Shown here piece after piece: positions 6,811 to 39,601 of a stretch of 64,000 nucleotides of DNA. Within the stretch, counting starts at the first letter, position 1; each line of letters starts with the position of its first letter. The stretch spans positions 1,160-65,159 of the forward strand of contig CAYMSF010000019.1 in NCBI GenBank assembly GCA_964392985.1, written 5' to 3'. This stretch comes from an uncultured Victivallaceae bacterium. Lineage in GTDB: Bacteria; Verrucomicrobiota; Lentisphaeria; Victivallales; Victivallaceae. A program made the position numbers and the translations under genes. The notes below the pieces were generated by a model, which was given only the letters and a program-made list of their open reading frames with translations, made no database searches and had not been told where the DNA came from.

Positions 6811-8658
6811 CTATTCTACTGTAACACTTTTTGCCAGATTGCGCGGCTGGTCTATTTCACAACCGCGTTCGCGGGCAATATAGTATGAAAGCAACTGCAG
6901 CGCGACAACTGTCGGCAGTGGCGCCGTAAACTGTGAACACGGTGGCAGCCAGATGATATCTTCGGCGACATCTTTGACTTCTTTATCGCCTTCTGTCGCG
7001 GTGATGATGACGGGTGAATGTCTGGCATGACATTCTTGAATATTGCCGAGAATTTTATCTTTGCCGGGGATATCATTCGCGAGCGCAAGTACAGGAACTT
7101 TAGCTTCCAGCAGGGCAATCGGTCCATGTTTCAGTTCGGCGGCGTGATAACCTTCGGCATGAATGTAACTGATTTCTTTGAGTTTTAACGCTCCTTCCAG
7201 GGCGACCGGATAGAGGCAACCGCGTCCGATGAAGAAAAAGTCTTCGGCGCGAGCATATTTTTTTGCAATATTTTCAATTTCGCTTTTACGCTCCAGAACT
7301 TGACGAATTAAATCAGGAATTCTGTTAACATCATCAATAATCCTCAATCCATCCTCACGGGACAGTCTGCGGTTACGGCCGAATAACAGCGCCATCATCA
7401 ATAATACAGTTACCTGACAGGTGAAAGCCTTTGTTGATGCAACGCCGATTTCCGGACCGGCGTGAAGGTAAATACCGCGCCCGGCTTCACGGGCAATCGT
7501 AGAACCGACAACATTGCATATTGACACAACCGTAGCACCTTTTGTCGCAGCCTCGCGTACTGCCGCAAGTGTATCGGCAGTTTCTCCTGACTGGCTGATC
7601 GGTATCACCAGTGAATTCGGTTCAATAATCGGATTCCGGTAGCGGAATTCCGCCGCCTGTTCAATCTCCACCGGTATTCCGGCAAGCTCTTCAAAGAAAT
7701 AACGTCCGACCATTCCGGCATGCATGCTGGTGCCGCAGGCGGCGATAATTATCCTGCTGACCTGCGCCAGATCTTTTGATGTCATATTTAAACCAGAGAA
7801 TACTGAGGTGACAGTATTCCGGTCCAGACGGCCGCGAATAGAATTGCTGACGGCATCGGGTTGTTCGCAAATTTCCTTCAGCATAAAATGTTCGTAGCCA
7901 CTTTTTTCTGCTGCTTCCGGGGACCAGTCAATATTGGCAATTTCGCGGGCGACGGGAATATTTTCAATATTTCTTATATCAATATCAGTGGCGGTAATTC
8001 TGGCCACGTCATGATCGTTGAGGTAAATCACCCGGCGGGTATATGCCGCCAGGGCGGCGATGTCACTGGCAACGAAGGTTTCATTTTCGCCGACACCGAT
8101 AACCAGCGGGCTGCCTTGGCGGGCGACAATAATTGTTCCAGGAGCGTCTTCGGCAATGACAGCCAGACCGTAAGTGCCCTTGACTCGCTTTAAGGCCGCC
8201 GCGACAGCGCTGAACAGATCACCTTCGTAGCACTCGGAAATCAGATGTGCCAGCACTTCGGTATCGGTTTCAGAAACAAATTTGCGTCCTTTTTCCTGCA
8301 GATGGGCACGTAAGCTGGCATAATTCTCAATGATGCCGTTATGGACTATGGCAAAACGACCGGAATCATCACAATGCGGATGAGCATTCGGTACCGTCGG
8401 CGGTCCGTGTGTCGCCCAACGGGTATGGGCAATGCCGACTGTCGCAGTCGTTGCAAGTTCAGGTCCCAATTCCTGGACGATTTTGATTTCCAGCTCTTTA
8501 CTGACTTTGCCGATGGCCTTGATAACTTTTATTGCTGGTTGCTCAAGCAAGGCGATACCTGCCGAGTCGTAACCACGGTATTCCAATCGCTTTAATCCGT
8601 CAACAAGAGTTCTTACCAGATTGCGTTTACTGCCAGCATAACCTACTATTCCACACAT
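6811..8658 (-). CDS. glmS: glutamine--fructose-6-phosphate aminotransferase (isomerizing)
   Basis: MCGIVGY Ntn start at 8658 with AGGAG upstream (the track ORF extends to 8721). Two SIS domains. C-terminal ...NLAKSVTVE. Confidence 0.95.
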   Translation of the reverse strand: MCGIVGYAGSKRNLVRTLVDGLKRLEYRGYDSAGIALLEQPAIKVIKAIGKVSKELEIKIVQELGPELATTATVGIAHTRWATHGPPTVPNAHPHCDDSGRFAIVHNGIIENYASLRAHLQEKGRKFVSETDTEVLAHLISECYEGDLFSAVAAALKRVKGTYGLAVIAEDAPGTIIVARQGSPLVIGVGENETFVASDIAALAAYTRRVIYLNDHDVARITATDIDIRNIENIPVAREIANIDWSPEAAEKSGYEHFMLKEICEQPDAVSNSIRGRLDRNTVTSVFSGLNMTSKDLAQVSRIIIAACGTSMHAGMVGRYFFEELAGIPVEIEQAAEFRYRNPIIEPNSLVIPISQSGETADTLAAVREAATKGATVVSICNVVGSTIAREAGRGIYLHAGPEIGVASTKAFTCQVTVLLMMALLFGRNRRLSREDGLRIIDDVNRIPDLIRQVLERKSEIENIAKKYARAEDFFFIGRGCLYPVALEGALKLKEISYIHAEGYHAAELKHGPIALLEAKVPVLALANDIPGKDKILGNIQECHARHSPVIITATEGDKEVKDVAEDIIWLPPCSQFTAPLPTVVALQLLSYYIARERGCEIDQPRNLAKSVTVE

Positions 8659-8845
8659 TTTAAGGCTCCTTGAAATTAAAAAAAGCTCTCTAAATGTAAT
8701 GCCTGAAACCTCTTTTAGCAAGAGCTTCAGCTAAAATCCGGGCATATTTTCTCAATATACAGCCAGGCAAAGTTCTATATTTTAAAAGCGCGTATTGTTT
8801 AGACTTGATAACTTTTATGTTCCCTTTTGGCATATTCAATTATTG

Positions 8846-8891
8846 TTGACAAAATTGTAACGACACATTGTCGCATTGACAAAAATGTAAC
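8846..8891 (+). promoter_or_regulatory. pair of 16-mer direct repeats, candidate upstream activator sequence for a sigma-54 activator
   Basis: TTGACAAAATTGTAAC (8846-8861) and TTGACAAAAATGTAAC (8876-8891), with palindrome CGACAcatTGTCG (8861-8873) between them. They lie 90-135 bp upstream of the sigma-54 promoter at 8981. A near-identical motif pair occurs upstream of the EBP gene at 35582-35637. Confidence 0.35.
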
Positions 8892-8980
8892 AATAGAGAA
8901 AGGTAAACTGCATGATTAATGAAGCCACAAAAAACATAAAATGCTTATGATTAATTATTTACATATATTAATACAATAGT

Positions 8981-8996
8981 TGGCATTGTAATTGCT
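8981..8996 (+). promoter_or_regulatory. sigma-54 (RpoN) -24/-12 promoter
   Basis: TGGCAT-TGTAA-TTGCT, with GG (8982-8983) and GC (8994-8995) separated by exactly 10 nt. This matches TGGCAC-N5-TTGCW at all key positions. It is oriented toward the secretin-like genes. Confidence 0.55.
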
Positions 8997-9054
8997 TAAA
9001 AGGTTTTGTCTTCAGTGAATTTGTCAACGGAACCAATTTAAAGTGAGGTATACT

Positions 9055-9164
9055 ATGCGACAACAACAAAACAGTTTAATGTAAGGTGCGGAATGCCGGA
9101 GATCACCCCCTTTCCCGGCATTCCGACAACCCTTACAAGAGCGGGAATCCCGGCATCGGGATTC
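9055..9164 (+). promoter_or_regulatory. structured 5' leader: mini-ORF plus two hairpins with alternative pairing
   Basis: GAGG-N7-ATG mini-ORF MRQQQNSLM* (9055-9084). Hairpin GTAAGG..GGAATGCCGG(9090-9099)/CCGGCATTCC(9115-9124)..CCTTAC(9131-9136). Second hairpin GAATCCC(9145-9151)/GGGATTC(9158-9164), whose loop region CCGGCAT could pair with the first 5' arm instead. Confidence 0.3.
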
Positions 9165-9233
9165 AGAATGTAGTTATATGATAATTAAGTTTTAAGTAGT
9201 TGAAACCAAATAAATAAGTTAAAAAAGGAAAAG

Positions 9234-10817
9234 ATGAAAACAATATTTAAGACAGTATTGTTGTTGCTGATGGCGTTATGCTTCAGCGTACAGGCGGAAA
9301 AAGTAAAGAAACTTCGATTAAATCAGGATGATGCGCAGTCGTTCCTGGTCTCAAAGACCTACGAATTGAAGCACACCCGGGCATGTGATATTGCCCCGTT
9401 CGTCGAAGGCGCGGTAAAACGCTATAACGTTGACTCCAATGTTCAGCGGCTTGACTTTAAAGCCGGCGGCAAGGAGATTCTGGTAGTCAGTACCGGCGTG
9501 GATATGATGCCTTATATTGACGACATGATTGCCAAGGTTGACATTCCCGGGGTAAAAGATGTTTCCGGTTCCGTTGTTGAAGGAACCGGGATCAGCCGTT
9601 TTGCCTATTATCCTAAAAATCGTGCAACAAAAGATATGTTGAAGGTTTTGCGGAATAATGTACTGCCTGGCAATAGTGCAGTATTTCTTGATGAAAGCGT
9701 TTCGATGTTGTATTGGAAATGTTCAAAATCCGATGGCGACATGGTGATGCGTTGGATTAACGAGCTTGACCGTCCGGTACCGCAGGTACAGGTGAAGATG
9801 CGGGTGTATGAAGTTCGCGACAGCGATCTGACTGATATCGGTATCAATTATATTGCCTGGAAAAACGGACCGGGTATGGACTTGTTCGGCGCCGGGCTTG
9901 AAGCCATCAGCCTTTCCGGCTGGGACGAAGTTGTTAAAGCTGCCGCCTTCCAGGGAGCAAACGTCATGAGCCAGGCCAGTTGGGCATGGGGCGGTTTCTT
10001 CTGCGCGCCGCAGTTTGATTTCAGCTTTGTCCGGATGCTTGCCCAGGACGGTAAAGCCAGAATTGCTGATTCCGGCAGTTTGACGGTTGTAAACGATTTT
10101 GACAACTCATATTCCATTAAATTTACTCCGGATTTTCAGAATATCATCAAAACGCCGGATACTGACCAGATGAGCGTTGAACCCAGTTCACCGTCAATCT
10201 TTGAAATGACGATCAACCAGCCGGTAATCTGTTTCAAAGGCGCTGGTAACACTGTAACAGAATCTGCAGACGACCGGCGTTATGACGAAGAGAAAGCGTC
10301 AACGACTGAAGGAACAATTATGTTCAACTATTTTGTTTCTAAAGCTGATCCGGTTGAACGCAATAACTTTGGACAGGAACTTTATCAGACGATGAACGCT
10401 TCGTCAAATCTGACATTGGCCGTTGGTAATGAACGTTTACTGGCAACCTGGAAAAAGGAATATGACACAGAGCAGACCATTGGTATGCCATTCCTTTCCG
10501 ACATTCCGATATTAAAATATCTCTTTGGCACAACGACGAAAATTAAGTCCACCAATTATTACTTCGTCACCGTCAAAGCGGAATGGGTCATGCCGGATGC
10601 AGAACTCGCCGGATGGGCAGGTAAATTACTGTCTCAGGAAATGCTGATTAAAAAACCCGCAGATAAAACTGCAACTGTAGCTGCAGCACCTGTCGCTCCG
10701 GTAGCGGCACCAGCTCCTGCGGCTCCGTCTGCTCCAGTAGTACCACCAGCGACACCGGCAGTTCCGGCAACTCCTGCCGCTCCGGTAGCAGTCGCTCCGG
10801 CTGCCGCAGCTAAATAA
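9234..10817 (+). CDS. secretin-family outer-membrane channel protein (GspD/PilQ-like) with C-terminal Pro/Ala-rich tail
   Basis: Signal peptide. NolW-like N-domain (FLVSKTYELKHTRACDIAPFVEGAV). Secretin domain onset VQVKMRVYEVRDSDLTDIGINY. C-terminal secretin motif GMPFLSDIPILKYLFG. About 45-aa tail AAAPVAPVAAPAPAAPSAPVVPPATPAVPATPAAPVAVAPAAAAK. Confidence 0.75.
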   Translation: MKTIFKTVLLLLMALCFSVQAEKVKKLRLNQDDAQSFLVSKTYELKHTRACDIAPFVEGAVKRYNVDSNVQRLDFKAGGKEILVVSTGVDMMPYIDDMIAKVDIPGVKDVSGSVVEGTGISRFAYYPKNRATKDMLKVLRNNVLPGNSAVFLDESVSMLYWKCSKSDGDMVMRWINELDRPVPQVQVKMRVYEVRDSDLTDIGINYIAWKNGPGMDLFGAGLEAISLSGWDEVVKAAAFQGANVMSQASWAWGGFFCAPQFDFSFVRMLAQDGKARIADSGSLTVVNDFDNSYSIKFTPDFQNIIKTPDTDQMSVEPSSPSIFEMTINQPVICFKGAGNTVTESADDRRYDEEKASTTEGTIMFNYFVSKADPVERNNFGQELYQTMNASSNLTLAVGNERLLATWKKEYDTEQTIGMPFLSDIPILKYLFGTTTKIKSTNYYFVTVKAEWVMPDAELAGWAGKLLSQEMLIKKPADKTATVAAAPVAPVAAPAPAAPSAPVVPPATPAVPATPAAPVAVAPAAAAK

Positions 10818-12885: not shown

Positions 12886-12913
12886 GGCCGGTCCCCCTCC
12901 GGCCGTTTTTTTT
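12886..12913 (+). terminator. rho-independent terminator
   Basis: GGCCGG-tccccct-CCGGCC followed by GTTTTTTTT. Confidence 0.8.
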
Positions 12914-13048
12914 GCCCGTAATTCCACATTAAAGTCCATCAAAATCTTGTTTTTAAATGCTTTACTATTGACAAATTTCCGAAACGCAGTATTCGTAATT
13001 GATCACTATTCCTTAAGTTAATTAAAATAATAACCATGGGGTGCTGGA

Positions 13049-13867
13049 ATGAAAAGTTTAATCAGTATGTTCAAAGTCGGATCAGTTGCTATTGCGATAA
13101 TGTCTGGTAACGTGCTGTTTGCTGAAGACGCCACGGTACTGAATCCGAAGACTTGTGCCGAATGGACCTGGGGCTGGAATACTAAAGCGGTGAATGCGGT
13201 TGAAAGTGAAAATGCGTTGTCCTGTCAAGGCGCGACCGATATGATTTCCAAAGAAGGAATAAAAATTGAACCGGATAAGAGTTATAAAATTTCCGGCTCA
13301 TTTAAGCTGGCGCCGGATTCTAAGCCATCAAAATTTTATCTGTCCATAATGCCGCTTGATAGCAAAGGACAACCGATATCTTCTGAAAGCGTCGGCGTAA
13401 TAGCAGGAACTGAAACTGAATTGGCCGCAGATTGCAACCCGGATGATTTGGTCATTAAAATAAAAAATGGCGAAAAATGGAAGCCGGAAAATTACGGCAG
13501 GATCGCCTTTAATGTTGATGACTCCGGAAAAAAGGCCGACTTGCCGAATAATGAGCTTTCCGGCACCGGTATCACGAAGGTTGAGAAAAAAGACGACGTT
13601 TTTGAATTAACCCTTAAAAATAAATGCGGGAAGAAATATCCGGCCGGAACAAAAATTCGTGAACATAAATCAGGCGCAACCTATATTTACATTGGCGCGA
13701 TGAATAAAGATGTTCCTGCAGACTGGACGGAAGTTTCCGGAGTATTCAAAAAAGAAAATCTCTGGCTTGCCTCCTGCGGGGCTAAAATTGTTGTCCGCGC
13801 CAACTTCAGCGGCAAACCCGACCAGACAATGTTGCTGAAAGACGTCAAAATTGAAGAAGTAAAATAG
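13049..13867 (+). CDS. hypothetical secreted protein
   Basis: 272-aa ORF with an N-terminal signal-like segment (VGSVAIAIMSGNVLFAED). I recognise no motif. It is followed by a strong terminator. Confidence 0.7.
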   Translation: MKSLISMFKVGSVAIAIMSGNVLFAEDATVLNPKTCAEWTWGWNTKAVNAVESENALSCQGATDMISKEGIKIEPDKSYKISGSFKLAPDSKPSKFYLSIMPLDSKGQPISSESVGVIAGTETELAADCNPDDLVIKIKNGEKWKPENYGRIAFNVDDSGKKADLPNNELSGTGITKVEKKDDVFELTLKNKCGKKYPAGTKIREHKSGATYIYIGAMNKDVPADWTEVSGVFKKENLWLASCGAKIVVRANFSGKPDQTMLLKDVKIEEVK

Positions 13868-35581: not shown

Positions 35582-35637
35582 TTAACAAATTTGTAATAAA
35601 AACCGGAATGGCTATATTAATTTAACAAATTTGTAAT
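35582..35637 (+). promoter_or_regulatory. pair of 16-mer repeats upstream of the sigma-54 activator gene (candidate autoregulatory sites)
   Basis: TTAACAAATTTGTAAT at 35582-35597 and 35622-35637 (exact copies, 40-bp period). The core ACAAATTTGT is a perfect palindrome. 13/16 match to the 8846 motif. Confidence 0.35.
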
Positions 35638-35697: not shown

Positions 35698-37230
35698 ATG
35701 GATAAGCCTGGAAACCTTGAAATGGCGGTCTTAAATCAGATCAGCCATGTATTAGTGCATCAAAAAAATGTTTCGGCATTGATGAAAGAGATTTTGGATA
35801 TTCTTTACCGCGAAATGGGGTTAAAGCGCGGAACTTTCACGCTACGACGCGGAGATGTACTGTTTATTGAAGCGTCTCACGGGTTGAGTGATGCTGAAAT
35901 AACCCGGGGCAAATATCATATTGGCGAGGGCATTACCGGAAAGGTGGCGGCGACATGTCAACCACTGGTCATTCCGGATATTTCTCAGGAACCTGGATTC
36001 CTGGATCGTACTCAGGCGCGTTCTACCGAGAGGAACATTGCGTTCATTTGTGTTCCTGTTATCCATGATGGCGAAGCAATCGGAACATTGAGTATTGACC
36101 GGGAGCGGAGTGCTAATATTAACCTGGACCGGGATTTATATCTGGTGGAAACGGTGGCGAACATCGTTGCAGATGCCGTTGCGATGAGCGTGAAAGAACT
36201 TGAAGAACGGGAAAAACTGCTGGATGAAAACCGGCGTTTGAAGATTGAACTTGATAAAAATTTACGCCCGGGAAATATTGTCGGCAATTGCAGCAGTATG
36301 CGCGCTATTTACGCGATGATTGCTCAGGTTGCGGACAGTAGCGCAACAGTGCTGATTCGCGGCAGTTCCGGAACGGGAAAAGAGTTGGTGGCGCGAGCGA
36401 TTCACCATTCCAGCATTCGCAAAGATAAACCGTTCGTCGCGGTTAATTGCGCGGCGCTACCGGAAAATCTGATTGAAAGTGAATTGTTCGGACATGAAAA
36501 GGGTTCGTTTACCGGCGCCGTCAGCCGTCGTACCGGCAGAATTGAATCTGCCAACAACGGGACGTTGTTTCTTGATGAAATTGGTGATCTTGGTCAGGCG
36601 GTACAGGTAAAGTTGCTACGGTTCCTTCAAGAGAAAACTTTTGAGCGCATCGGCAGCAATGAAGAGATCAAAGTCGACGTTAGAATTCTTGCCGCGACCA
36701 GCCGTAATCTGGAAAAATTAATGGTGGAAAACCGTTTTCGTGAAGATTTGTATTACCGGCTGAATGTTTTCCCCATCCACGTTCCTGACTTGAAGGACCG
36801 TCGCGCTGACATCATGTTGCTGGCAGATAACTTTCTCGAAAAATATAACCGGATGTATGACCGCACTATCAAGCGGATTTCAACACCGGCAATCAATATG
36901 ATGATGGCATATCATTGGCCCGGCAATGTCCGGGAGCTGGAAAACTGCATTGAAAGAGCCGTTCTGACTGCCAATGACGATGTTATTCATGGTTATAACC
37001 TGCCTCCGTCTCTGCAAACGGGTCAGGCGACAAATACGGCTACGATTGTTCCAGAGAAAAATGCCGACATGGATACTTTGGTCTCATCGTTTGAGCGTGA
37101 ATTGATCGTTGATGCTTTAAAACTGAAGCGCGGCAACGTTGCGGCCGCCGCCAGACAACTCGGCATTACTCAGCGTATAATTCATTATAAAATAAAAAAA
37201 CTGGCGATATGCAGCACGATGTACACATGA
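35698..37230 (+). CDS. sigma-54-dependent transcriptional activator, GAF-AAA+-Fis HTH (NifA-like architecture)
   Basis: GAF N-terminus. Walker [24 protein letters not shown] (GAFTGA variant). C-terminal [20 protein letters not shown]. An ATG at 35698 follows TTG 35695, with AGGGGGG upstream. Confidence 0.9.
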
Positions 37231-39509: not shown

Positions 39510-39573
39510 GCAATCAGGACAGATTTTGTTTGTTGCAAGCAGTAAGATTTTTTTGGTTTTTTTAAATTAATTT

Positions 39574-39601
39574 GTAACCTTTTTATGACAGATGACGACT
39601 A
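39574..39601 (+). promoter_or_regulatory. candidate ECF-type autoregulated promoter
   Basis: GTAACC (-35-like AAC), then a 17-nt spacer, then CGACTA (-10-like CG-C), about 45 nt upstream of the ECF sigma ATG. Confidence 0.3.

Follow-up and report, generated by a model that had tools for sequence, protein, structure and literature searches.

A σ54 promoter with tandem upstream sites probably places a paired secretin-like operon of an uncultured Victivallaceae bacterium under nitrogen-assimilation control

Positions 8846-8996 of the window, by which we mean the whole 64-kb stretch of DNA analysed here (contig C19 of the assembly of an uncultured Victivallaceae bacterium), very probably control a secretin-like operon of two genes that belongs to a nitrogen-assimilation regulon governed by a NifA-like GAF activator. 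All genome-wide figures refer to the assembly searched, which comprises 5.36 Mb in 433 contigs, has a G+C content of 43.5% and is 95% complete. The initial annotation, made from the window, had proposed the promoter, the repeats upstream of it and their link to an activator gene in the same window; the positions and sequences that it gave for the promoter and for the four repeats were all exact (Table 1). What it missed is the identity of the regulon as one of nitrogen assimilation, comprising glnN, amtB and gltB.

Table 1. Coordinates of the promoters, activator sites and genes discussed in the text. Positions without a contig name are those of the window.
Feature	Coordinates	Strand	Details
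σ70-like promoter element	8721-8693	-	TTGCTA-17-TACATT; about 35 nt 5' of the glmS start; conserved in G001
Distal activator site, UAS-1	8846..8861	.	TTGACAAAATTGTAAC; PWM 18.7 bits; ACA..TTGT columns invariant in 4-genome alignment
Proximal activator site, UAS-2	8876..8891	.	TTGACAAAAATGTAAC; PWM 18.0 bits; ACA....TGTAA invariant in 4-genome alignment
σ54 (-24/-12) promoter	8981..8996	+	TGGCAT-TGTAA-TTGCT; GG 8982-83, GC 8994-95
Leader, 227 nt (predicted)	9007..9233	+	Mini-ORF, then stable hairpins
Mini-ORF	9055-9084	+	MRQQQNSLM and stop; behind a GAGG Shine-Dalgarno
Secretin-like gene 1, 527 aa	9234..10817	+	PF00263 31.6 bits (cut-off 27.5)
Secretin-like gene 2, 655 aa	10839..12806	+	PF00263 63.8 bits; 21 nt past gene 1
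Intrinsic terminator	12886..12913	+	GGCCGG-tccccct-CCGGCC, then T8; ends the two-gene operon
Promoter-like element	12999-13028		TTGATC-18-TAAAAT; precedes the gene at 13049-13867
Activator site 1 at activator gene	35582..35597	.	TTAACAAATTTGTAAT; PWM 20.8 bits
Weak σ70-like promoter of activator gene	35591-35618		TTGTAA-16-TATATT
Activator site 2 at activator gene	35622..35637	.	Identical TTAACAAATTTGTAAT, 40 bp 3' of the first; PWM 20.8 bits
One-component σ54 activator, GAF-AAA+-HTH_8	35698..37230	+	PF00158 244 bits; GAF; HTH_8 39 bits
glnN promoter	C3:81726-81883	-	TGGCATATAAGTTGCT; three sites and a weaker fourth
amtB promoter	C12:49820-49980	+	TGGCATGTTCTCTGCT; three sites
gltB promoter	C11:3562-3695	+	TGGCACGAAAAATGTT; two sites 17 bp apart; poor -12 element

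Results

The σ54 promoter and the operon that it faces

The promoter departs from the consensus TGGCAC-N5-TTGCW at a single position and has the GG-N10-GC spacing. It is intergenic and co-oriented with the first secretin-like gene, whose start at 9234 lies 238 nt downstream, and the start of transcription is predicted near 9007. A genome-wide scan with the strict pattern TGGCAY-N5-TTGCW returned 30 matches, among which this promoter is one of only 7 that are intergenic. The initial annotation had made its reading, a σ54 promoter aimed at the secretin-like genes, depend on the presence of rpoN, and the gene is present on contig C8 as a 513-aa open frame (PF04552, 206 bits); the promoter is moreover conserved in orthologous loci, as described below. 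When the sequence was read by eye, no clear IHF site was found between the activator sites and the promoter, nor any σ54 promoter for glmS, the divergent neighbor.

From promoter to terminator the operon consists of the two secretin-like genes only, and it holds no partner genes of a T2SS, T4P, T3SS or phage-export system, nor other secretion or pilus partners. The best solved relatives of the second product are the C-terminal domains of GspD and PilQ (E = 3e-8). The leader folds with -59.7 kcal/mol (z = -3.64 against shuffled controls), and no Rfam family was detected on either strand of 8600-9300. Its glutamine-rich mini-ORF, standing in the leader of an operon predicted to be nitrogen-regulated, suggests ribosome-mediated sensing of glutamine. 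Downstream of the terminator, the next gene (13049-13867, 272 aa) received no assignment in the family searches and has a promoter-like element of its own.

On the other side, the intergenic region between the secretin-like operon and glmS spans 574 bp. The glmS gene is read from the minus strand (ATG at 8658-8656) and encodes SIS and GATase domains. The σ70-like element at 8721-8693 is probably its real promoter.

Activator sites and their distribution across the genome

The two sites upstream of the secretin-like operon are placed as enhancers of σ54 promoters commonly are, with at least two palindromes about 80-200 bp 5' of the promoter in whole-turn phasing. UAS-1 has the palindromic core tGACA-N4-TGTAa. 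Its center lies 129 bp 5' of the -24 GG and that of UAS-2 99 bp, which corresponds to about -154 and -124 relative to the predicted start; the period between the two sites is 30 bp, equal to three helical turns. The two identical sites in front of the activator gene agree with this pair at 13 of 16 positions.

The degenerate consensus TTRACAAAWWTGTAAY has exactly four matches in 5.36 Mb, namely the sites at 8846, 8876, 35582 and 35622, and the 16-mer is accordingly no common word of this genome. Because that consensus was built from the four sites themselves, the search was relaxed to the core ACAWWWWTGT, which occurs 142 times in the genome, 47 of them in intergenic DNA. Adjacent cores no more than 80 bp apart were observed 7 times genome-wide against 0.28 expected, and these pairs fall into just five clusters, located at the secretin-like operon, the activator gene, glnN, amtB and gltB. 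Three of the five clusters have a TGGCAY-N5-YTGCW element at the right distance and in the right orientation, with a P of about 5e-8 (calculated for at least three of five clusters having a correctly oriented element within 200 bp). The co-occurrence of repeats and σ54 promoters, for which the initial annotation had proposed a test, is found at glnN, amtB and gltB.

An 18-nt position weight matrix (PWM) was derived from 12 sites and has the consensus TATTACAAATTTGTAATA. Within the 64-kb window it gives 18.0-20.8 bits to the four sites, and the next best match scores 11.0. A further partial match, which the initial annotation had noted over a putative ECF promoter (39565-39579), reaches 4.9 bits, no more than a half-site, and is best treated as noise. 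Elsewhere in the genome there are 13 high-scoring intergenic sites that stand singly, all of them without a nearby σ54 element, and we took them as chance matches. A half-site-like sequence, AATTTGT(C/A)AAC, is also shared by the secretin (9019-9029) and glnN (C3) promoters, where it stands between a few and about 20 nt 3' of the point at which transcription is predicted to begin; its PWM score is under the threshold.

Targets of the regulon

When the 22 intergenic promoters that fit a relaxed σ54-like pattern were inspected, strong multi-site clusters were seen only at the glnN, amtB and secretin promoters; the gltB promoter, whose -12 element is the non-canonical ATGTT, lies outside that pattern. 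At all four promoters the site clusters are situated 85-142 bp 5' of the -24 GG, in a similar geometry. For the 716-aa product encoded on contig C3, length and sequence were taken to indicate a type III glutamine synthetase (GlnN); the scores against glutamine synthetase models are weak (at most 47.5 bits, with cut-offs of at least 429). The target on contig C12 is an ammonium transporter (TIGR00836, 458 bits) that is followed by a second amtB, and the 1517-aa product on contig C11 is read, from sequence alone, as the large subunit of glutamate synthase (GltB). Since the clusters stand at the σ54 promoters of glnN, amtB and gltB, the regulon is one of nitrogen assimilation, with the secretin-like operon as a fourth predicted σ54 target. 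With the motif exclusive to these places in the genome and the same geometry at the nitrogen promoters, the view of the upstream repeats as an enhancer, already put forward in the initial annotation, gains considerably.

Two other consensus σ54 promoters, C206:2016 (+) and C92:4645 (-), lack the nitrogen motif and stand directly beside other enhancer-binding protein (EBP) genes, the latter being aimed at a small DnaQ-like exonuclease gene. They likely represent separate one-operon regulons.

The NifA-like activator

Apart from the gene at 35698-37230, the 64-kb window encodes no PF00158 protein, and the genome as a whole has four true EBPs, this one included. The functional motifs of the protein are intact, including Walker A (GSSGTGKE), the σ54 contact loop (GSFTGA) and Walker B (LFLDEI). 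By their N-termini, the four EBPs comprise the window activator with a GAF domain, a PAS protein (C206), a receiver protein (C1) and one with no assigned domain (C92), so that the window activator is the only GAF-type EBP; its N-terminus does not carry an NtrC-type receiver domain. The top NCBIfam match is NifA TIGR01817, with 487.3 bits and thus under the cut-off of 528.85, and the best solved relative is NifA 9qq6, aligned over the full length (E = 2e-106). Nonetheless, nifH was not found in this 95%-complete assembly (best TIGR01287 score 33.8 bits, cut-off 394), and hence the activator is not a nif-specific regulator.

No nitrogen gene adjoins the activator gene in the window, and reading of the sequence by eye revealed no σ54 promoter 5' of it. 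Any autoregulation would therefore use the weak σ70-like promoter listed in Table 1, the -35 element of which is overlapped by the site at 35582, the site at 35622 lying just past its -10. The initial annotation had regarded the GAF gene as the cognate, self-regulating activator. The first part of this claim is strengthened by the enrichment of the motif at orthologues of the gene, described in the following section; the second part is plausible, through the weak σ70-like promoter, and the layout suggests that the effect would probably be repression.

Orthologues of the activator carry the motif

Orthologues with 57-88% identity exist in 26 of the 30 relatives, as well as in another 80 public genomes; their hosts are Lentisphaerota, Kiritimatiellia and Verrucomicrobiota, together with some MAGs that bear a Deltaproteobacteria label. 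Of roughly 105 loci, about 35 have glnN, amtB or gltB beside the orthologue. In 36 of 98 loci, PWM sites scoring 12 bits or higher fall in the 300 bp 5' of the orthologue, and the density of the motif is 1.61/kb in the 300 bp upstream of orthologues against 0.010/kb elsewhere in the same loci, an enrichment of about 160-fold. Two spacings between sites are prominent, 29-31 bp (8 cases) and 40 bp (3 cases), and the latter, which is the spacing at the window activator gene, was seen again in L005, L062 and L065. Among the results that count against the regulon reading, no activator orthologue was found in the congener G001, whose assembly is 88% complete.

Several gene arrangements were also observed at these loci. 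A glutamine synthetase gene lies directly 5' of the activator gene in L004 and L067-L069, and the activator likewise adjoins nitrogen genes in L020, L087, L094, L099, L115 and L137. Where the activator and the nitrogen gene are divergent, a consensus σ54 promoter in the intergenic region that they share faces the nitrogen gene, and the same region contains a pair of sites spaced by about 30 bp. In two Verrucomicrobiota MAGs (L083 7586-9091 and L085 7527-9350), a GlmS-like gene stands directly 3' of the activator orthologue; these GlmS-like genes are 27-31% identical to glmS and represent a further connection to a glutamine amidotransferase.

Conservation of the secretin-operon module

The first secretin-like gene has orthologues with 80-84% identity in G001, a member of the same genus, and in G031-G033, in which the promoter module is kept. 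A four-way alignment of the upstream regions is poor overall, with invariant islands at both ACA..TGT sites, at the TGGCAT..GCT of the promoter, and at the Shine-Dalgarno sequence with the mini-ORF start ATGCGACAACAA. TGGCAT, together with the GC at N10, is invariant in G001, G031, G032 and the metagenomic locus L142. The distances from the sites to the GG are 97/127 bp in G001, compared with 99/129 bp in the window, and in G031 and G032 the pair is followed, another 26 bp downstream, by a third site. L142, the sole useful locus obtained from a metagenome scan for orthologues (63% identity), presents one perfect TTACAAATATGTAA, a TGGCAT-N5-TAGCT promoter and the mini-ORF start.

The mini-ORF is part of this conservation. 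In the window, G001, G031 and G032, its Shine-Dalgarno sequence and ATGCGACAACAA are separated from the -12 element by a constant interval of about 60 nt. The start (MRQQ...) was located at L033 1281-1304, L184 1331, L185 1328 and L183 64, behind GAGG or AGGT as Shine-Dalgarno; in L142 (443) only ATGCGACAA (MRQ...) is present, and the truncated G033 locus retains the mini-ORF start only. The predicted peptides have 5-10 aa and diverge after residue 4.

In G001 the divergent neighbor is a ferritin/VIT1-like gene instead of glmS, and the module still accompanies the secretin pair; conversely, no activator sites were found at glmS of G001 and 20 other relatives. By this comparison, the sites and promoter form a module that belongs to the secretin operon. 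Neither the sites nor the promoter are present at the four other secretin-like paralogues of this genome or at most of those in relatives, and nitrogen control of secretin-like pairs is, as far as its predicted elements indicate, limited to one narrow clade. Separately, in G019, from another family (L055 777-869), a secretin-like homologue (45% identity) has one TTACATTATTGTCA and a TGGCATATTTAATGCT in front of it, about 370 nt 5' of its start, a case that may reflect an independent recruitment of nitrogen control.

Discussion

Proposed mechanism

In the standard model of σ54-dependent transcription, the polymerase forms a closed complex at the -24/-12 elements, and activator dimers bound upstream oligomerize, contact it by DNA looping and drive promoter opening with ATP. 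Applied to the secretin-like operon, σ54 RNA polymerase would wait at TGGCAT-N5-TTGCT (8981-8996) in a closed complex, and the two tTGACA-W4-TGTAAc palindromes, which share a helical face, would presumably be occupied by dimers of the window activator. The bound dimers would then assemble into an active AAA+ ring, loop out the AT-rich spacer and open the promoter at the expense of ATP. The predicted transcript would start near 9007, run through the leader with its Gln-rich mini-ORF and through both secretin-like genes, and stop at 12886-12913, while the two sites over the weak σ70-like promoter of the activator gene probably allow autoregulation. As the same sites stand at the σ54 promoters of glnN, amtB and gltB, the signal is most likely nitrogen limitation, and by analogy with the GAF domains of NifA proteins, the GAF domain of the activator is likely the nitrogen sensor.

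Alternative explanations

Even if the promoter and its sites are functional, the palindromes could be bound by another regulator, such as the receiver-type EBP encoded on C1 or a non-EBP nitrogen regulator acting alongside an activator. The genome does hold three further EBPs, and the DNA-binding domain (DBD) of the window activator is not closest to that of DVU1949, the regulator for which this motif has been published (see below). Set against this are the roughly 160-fold concentration of the motif just 5' of orthologues of this very activator in many genomes, its occurrence in divergent regions shared with σ54 promoters of nitrogen genes, and the two perfect sites in front of the activator gene although no nitrogen gene adjoins it; the C206 and C92 EBPs, for their part, have adjacent σ54 promoters of their own that are free of the motif. 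We consider binding by another regulator improbable.

Less can be said for treating the TTGACA repeats as ordinary σ70 elements, an objection raised by the initial annotation itself. On the minus strand the two repeats do create TTGTCA-17-TACAAT (8882-8854), a 10/12 match to the consensus that would drive glmS and leave no enhancer to explain. Yet σ70-like matches in the region are at the level of shuffled sequence (3 found, 2.8 expected), the plus strand offers no usable -10 element after either TTGACA, and the same palindromes recur at glnN, amtB and gltB. Given that glmS has a promoter-like TTGCTA-17-TACATT of its own that is conserved in G001, that glmS lacks the sites in 21 relatives, and that the sites stay with the secretin pair in G001, G031 and G032, the minus-strand match is most likely incidental, and we regard a role of the repeats as glmS promoter elements as very unlikely. 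As for a mere coincidence of AT-rich words, the intergenic DNA is indeed rich in A and T, with 47 single ACAWWWWTGT cores, but the statistics of the pairs, their co-occurrence with σ54 promoters and their conservation across genomes reduce its probability to almost nothing. The reading that we favor remains a σ54 control region served by the NifA-like GAF activator. Counting against it, besides the lack of an activator orthologue in G001, are the closer match of the DBD to DVU0569 than to DVU1949, the non-canonical -12 element at gltB, the narrow clade to which the predicted nitrogen control of secretin-like pairs is confined, and the failure to see a clear IHF site by eye.

Comparison with known systems

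The closest precedent is the DVU1949 regulon of Desulfovibrio vulgaris and other Desulfovibrionales, a computational prediction that comprises nine operons (Kazakov et al. 2015, PMC4641369). Its targets are filed under nitrogen metabolism and transport (Table 1 of that paper), autoregulation has been proposed for the DVU1952-DVU1949 operon, and the published sites include ATAACAAATTTGTAAT, ATTACAAAATTGTAAT, TTGACATATATGTCAA, TTGACATTTCTGTAAG and GTTACATTTTTGTAAT (PMC4641369). The likeness is extensive: in both cases a one-component σ54 activator is involved, the motif tTtACA-W4-TGTAAt is essentially the TATTACAAATTTGTAATA derived here, and the sites lie 5' of σ54 promoters of nitrogen operons as well as 5' of the operon of the regulator itself. 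Because the two motifs coincide, this type of circuit must be considered already predicted, by computation. The two systems differ in phylum, and no secretin-like genes are among the targets listed for DVU1949 (PMC4641369). In an alignment confined to the DNA-binding domains, the 42-aa DBD of the window activator matched best that of DVU0569 (score 120), with DVU1949 under 62; DVU0569 is a predicted regulator of alanine dehydrogenase with a different motif (PMC4641369). On this comparison the window activator is at best a putative orthologue of DVU1949.

With NifA the activator shares the GAF-AAA+-HTH architecture. The upstream activator sequence of NifA is TGT-N10-ACA, whereas the sites here read ACA-W4-TGT inside TTACA-N4-TGTAA, and the targets are assimilation genes instead of nif. 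The resemblance to NtrC is one of layout and physiology. At enterobacterial glnAp2 and glnK-amtB, tandem sites are located about 100-150 bp 5' of a σ54 promoter, nitrogen limitation switches on glutamine synthetase and ammonium transport, and at glnAp1/glnL the activator sites overlap a σ70 promoter, so that the layout at the window activator gene resembles repression by NtrC. NtrC sites have the form TGCACC-N5-GGTGCA, which is unrelated to the sequence found here, and NtrC has a phospho-receiver where the window activator has a GAF sensor, with no NtrB partner implied.

Both products of the operon have the C-terminal secretin domain of GspD, PilQ and pIV, but they differ from these proteins in their weak scores, in being paired, diverged paralogues and in their nitrogen-type promoter. 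We found no paper that treats nitrogen control by σ54 in Lentisphaerota or secretins regulated by nitrogen. What is new is the target, an orphan paired-secretin operon; the mechanism is not.

Biological meaning

A wider and more doubtful scenario would have a one-component NifA-like activator replacing NtrBC as the master regulator of ammonium assimilation in Lentisphaerota and their PVC relatives. Nitrogen starvation, acting through it, would turn on a two-subunit secretin-like gate in the outer membrane, for the uptake of nitrogen-rich macromolecules or for the export of scavenging enzymes, and the mini-ORF (MRQQ...) would add a readout of glutamine at the ribosome. We hold this combination to be unlikely in its entirety and offer it tentatively.

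At the level of the regulon, the analysis provides a sequence-level regulatory map for an uncultured lineage of Lentisphaerota, consisting of a promoter, two enhancer sites, an activator and four target operons. It also suggests that annotations of 'nif-specific NifA' in non-diazotrophs may designate general activators of ammonium assimilation. For the orphan family of paired secretins, the predicted co-expression with glutamine synthetase and AmtB is a first functional clue, and it favors a role in acquiring nitrogen through the outer membrane over one in classical secretion or pilus biogenesis.
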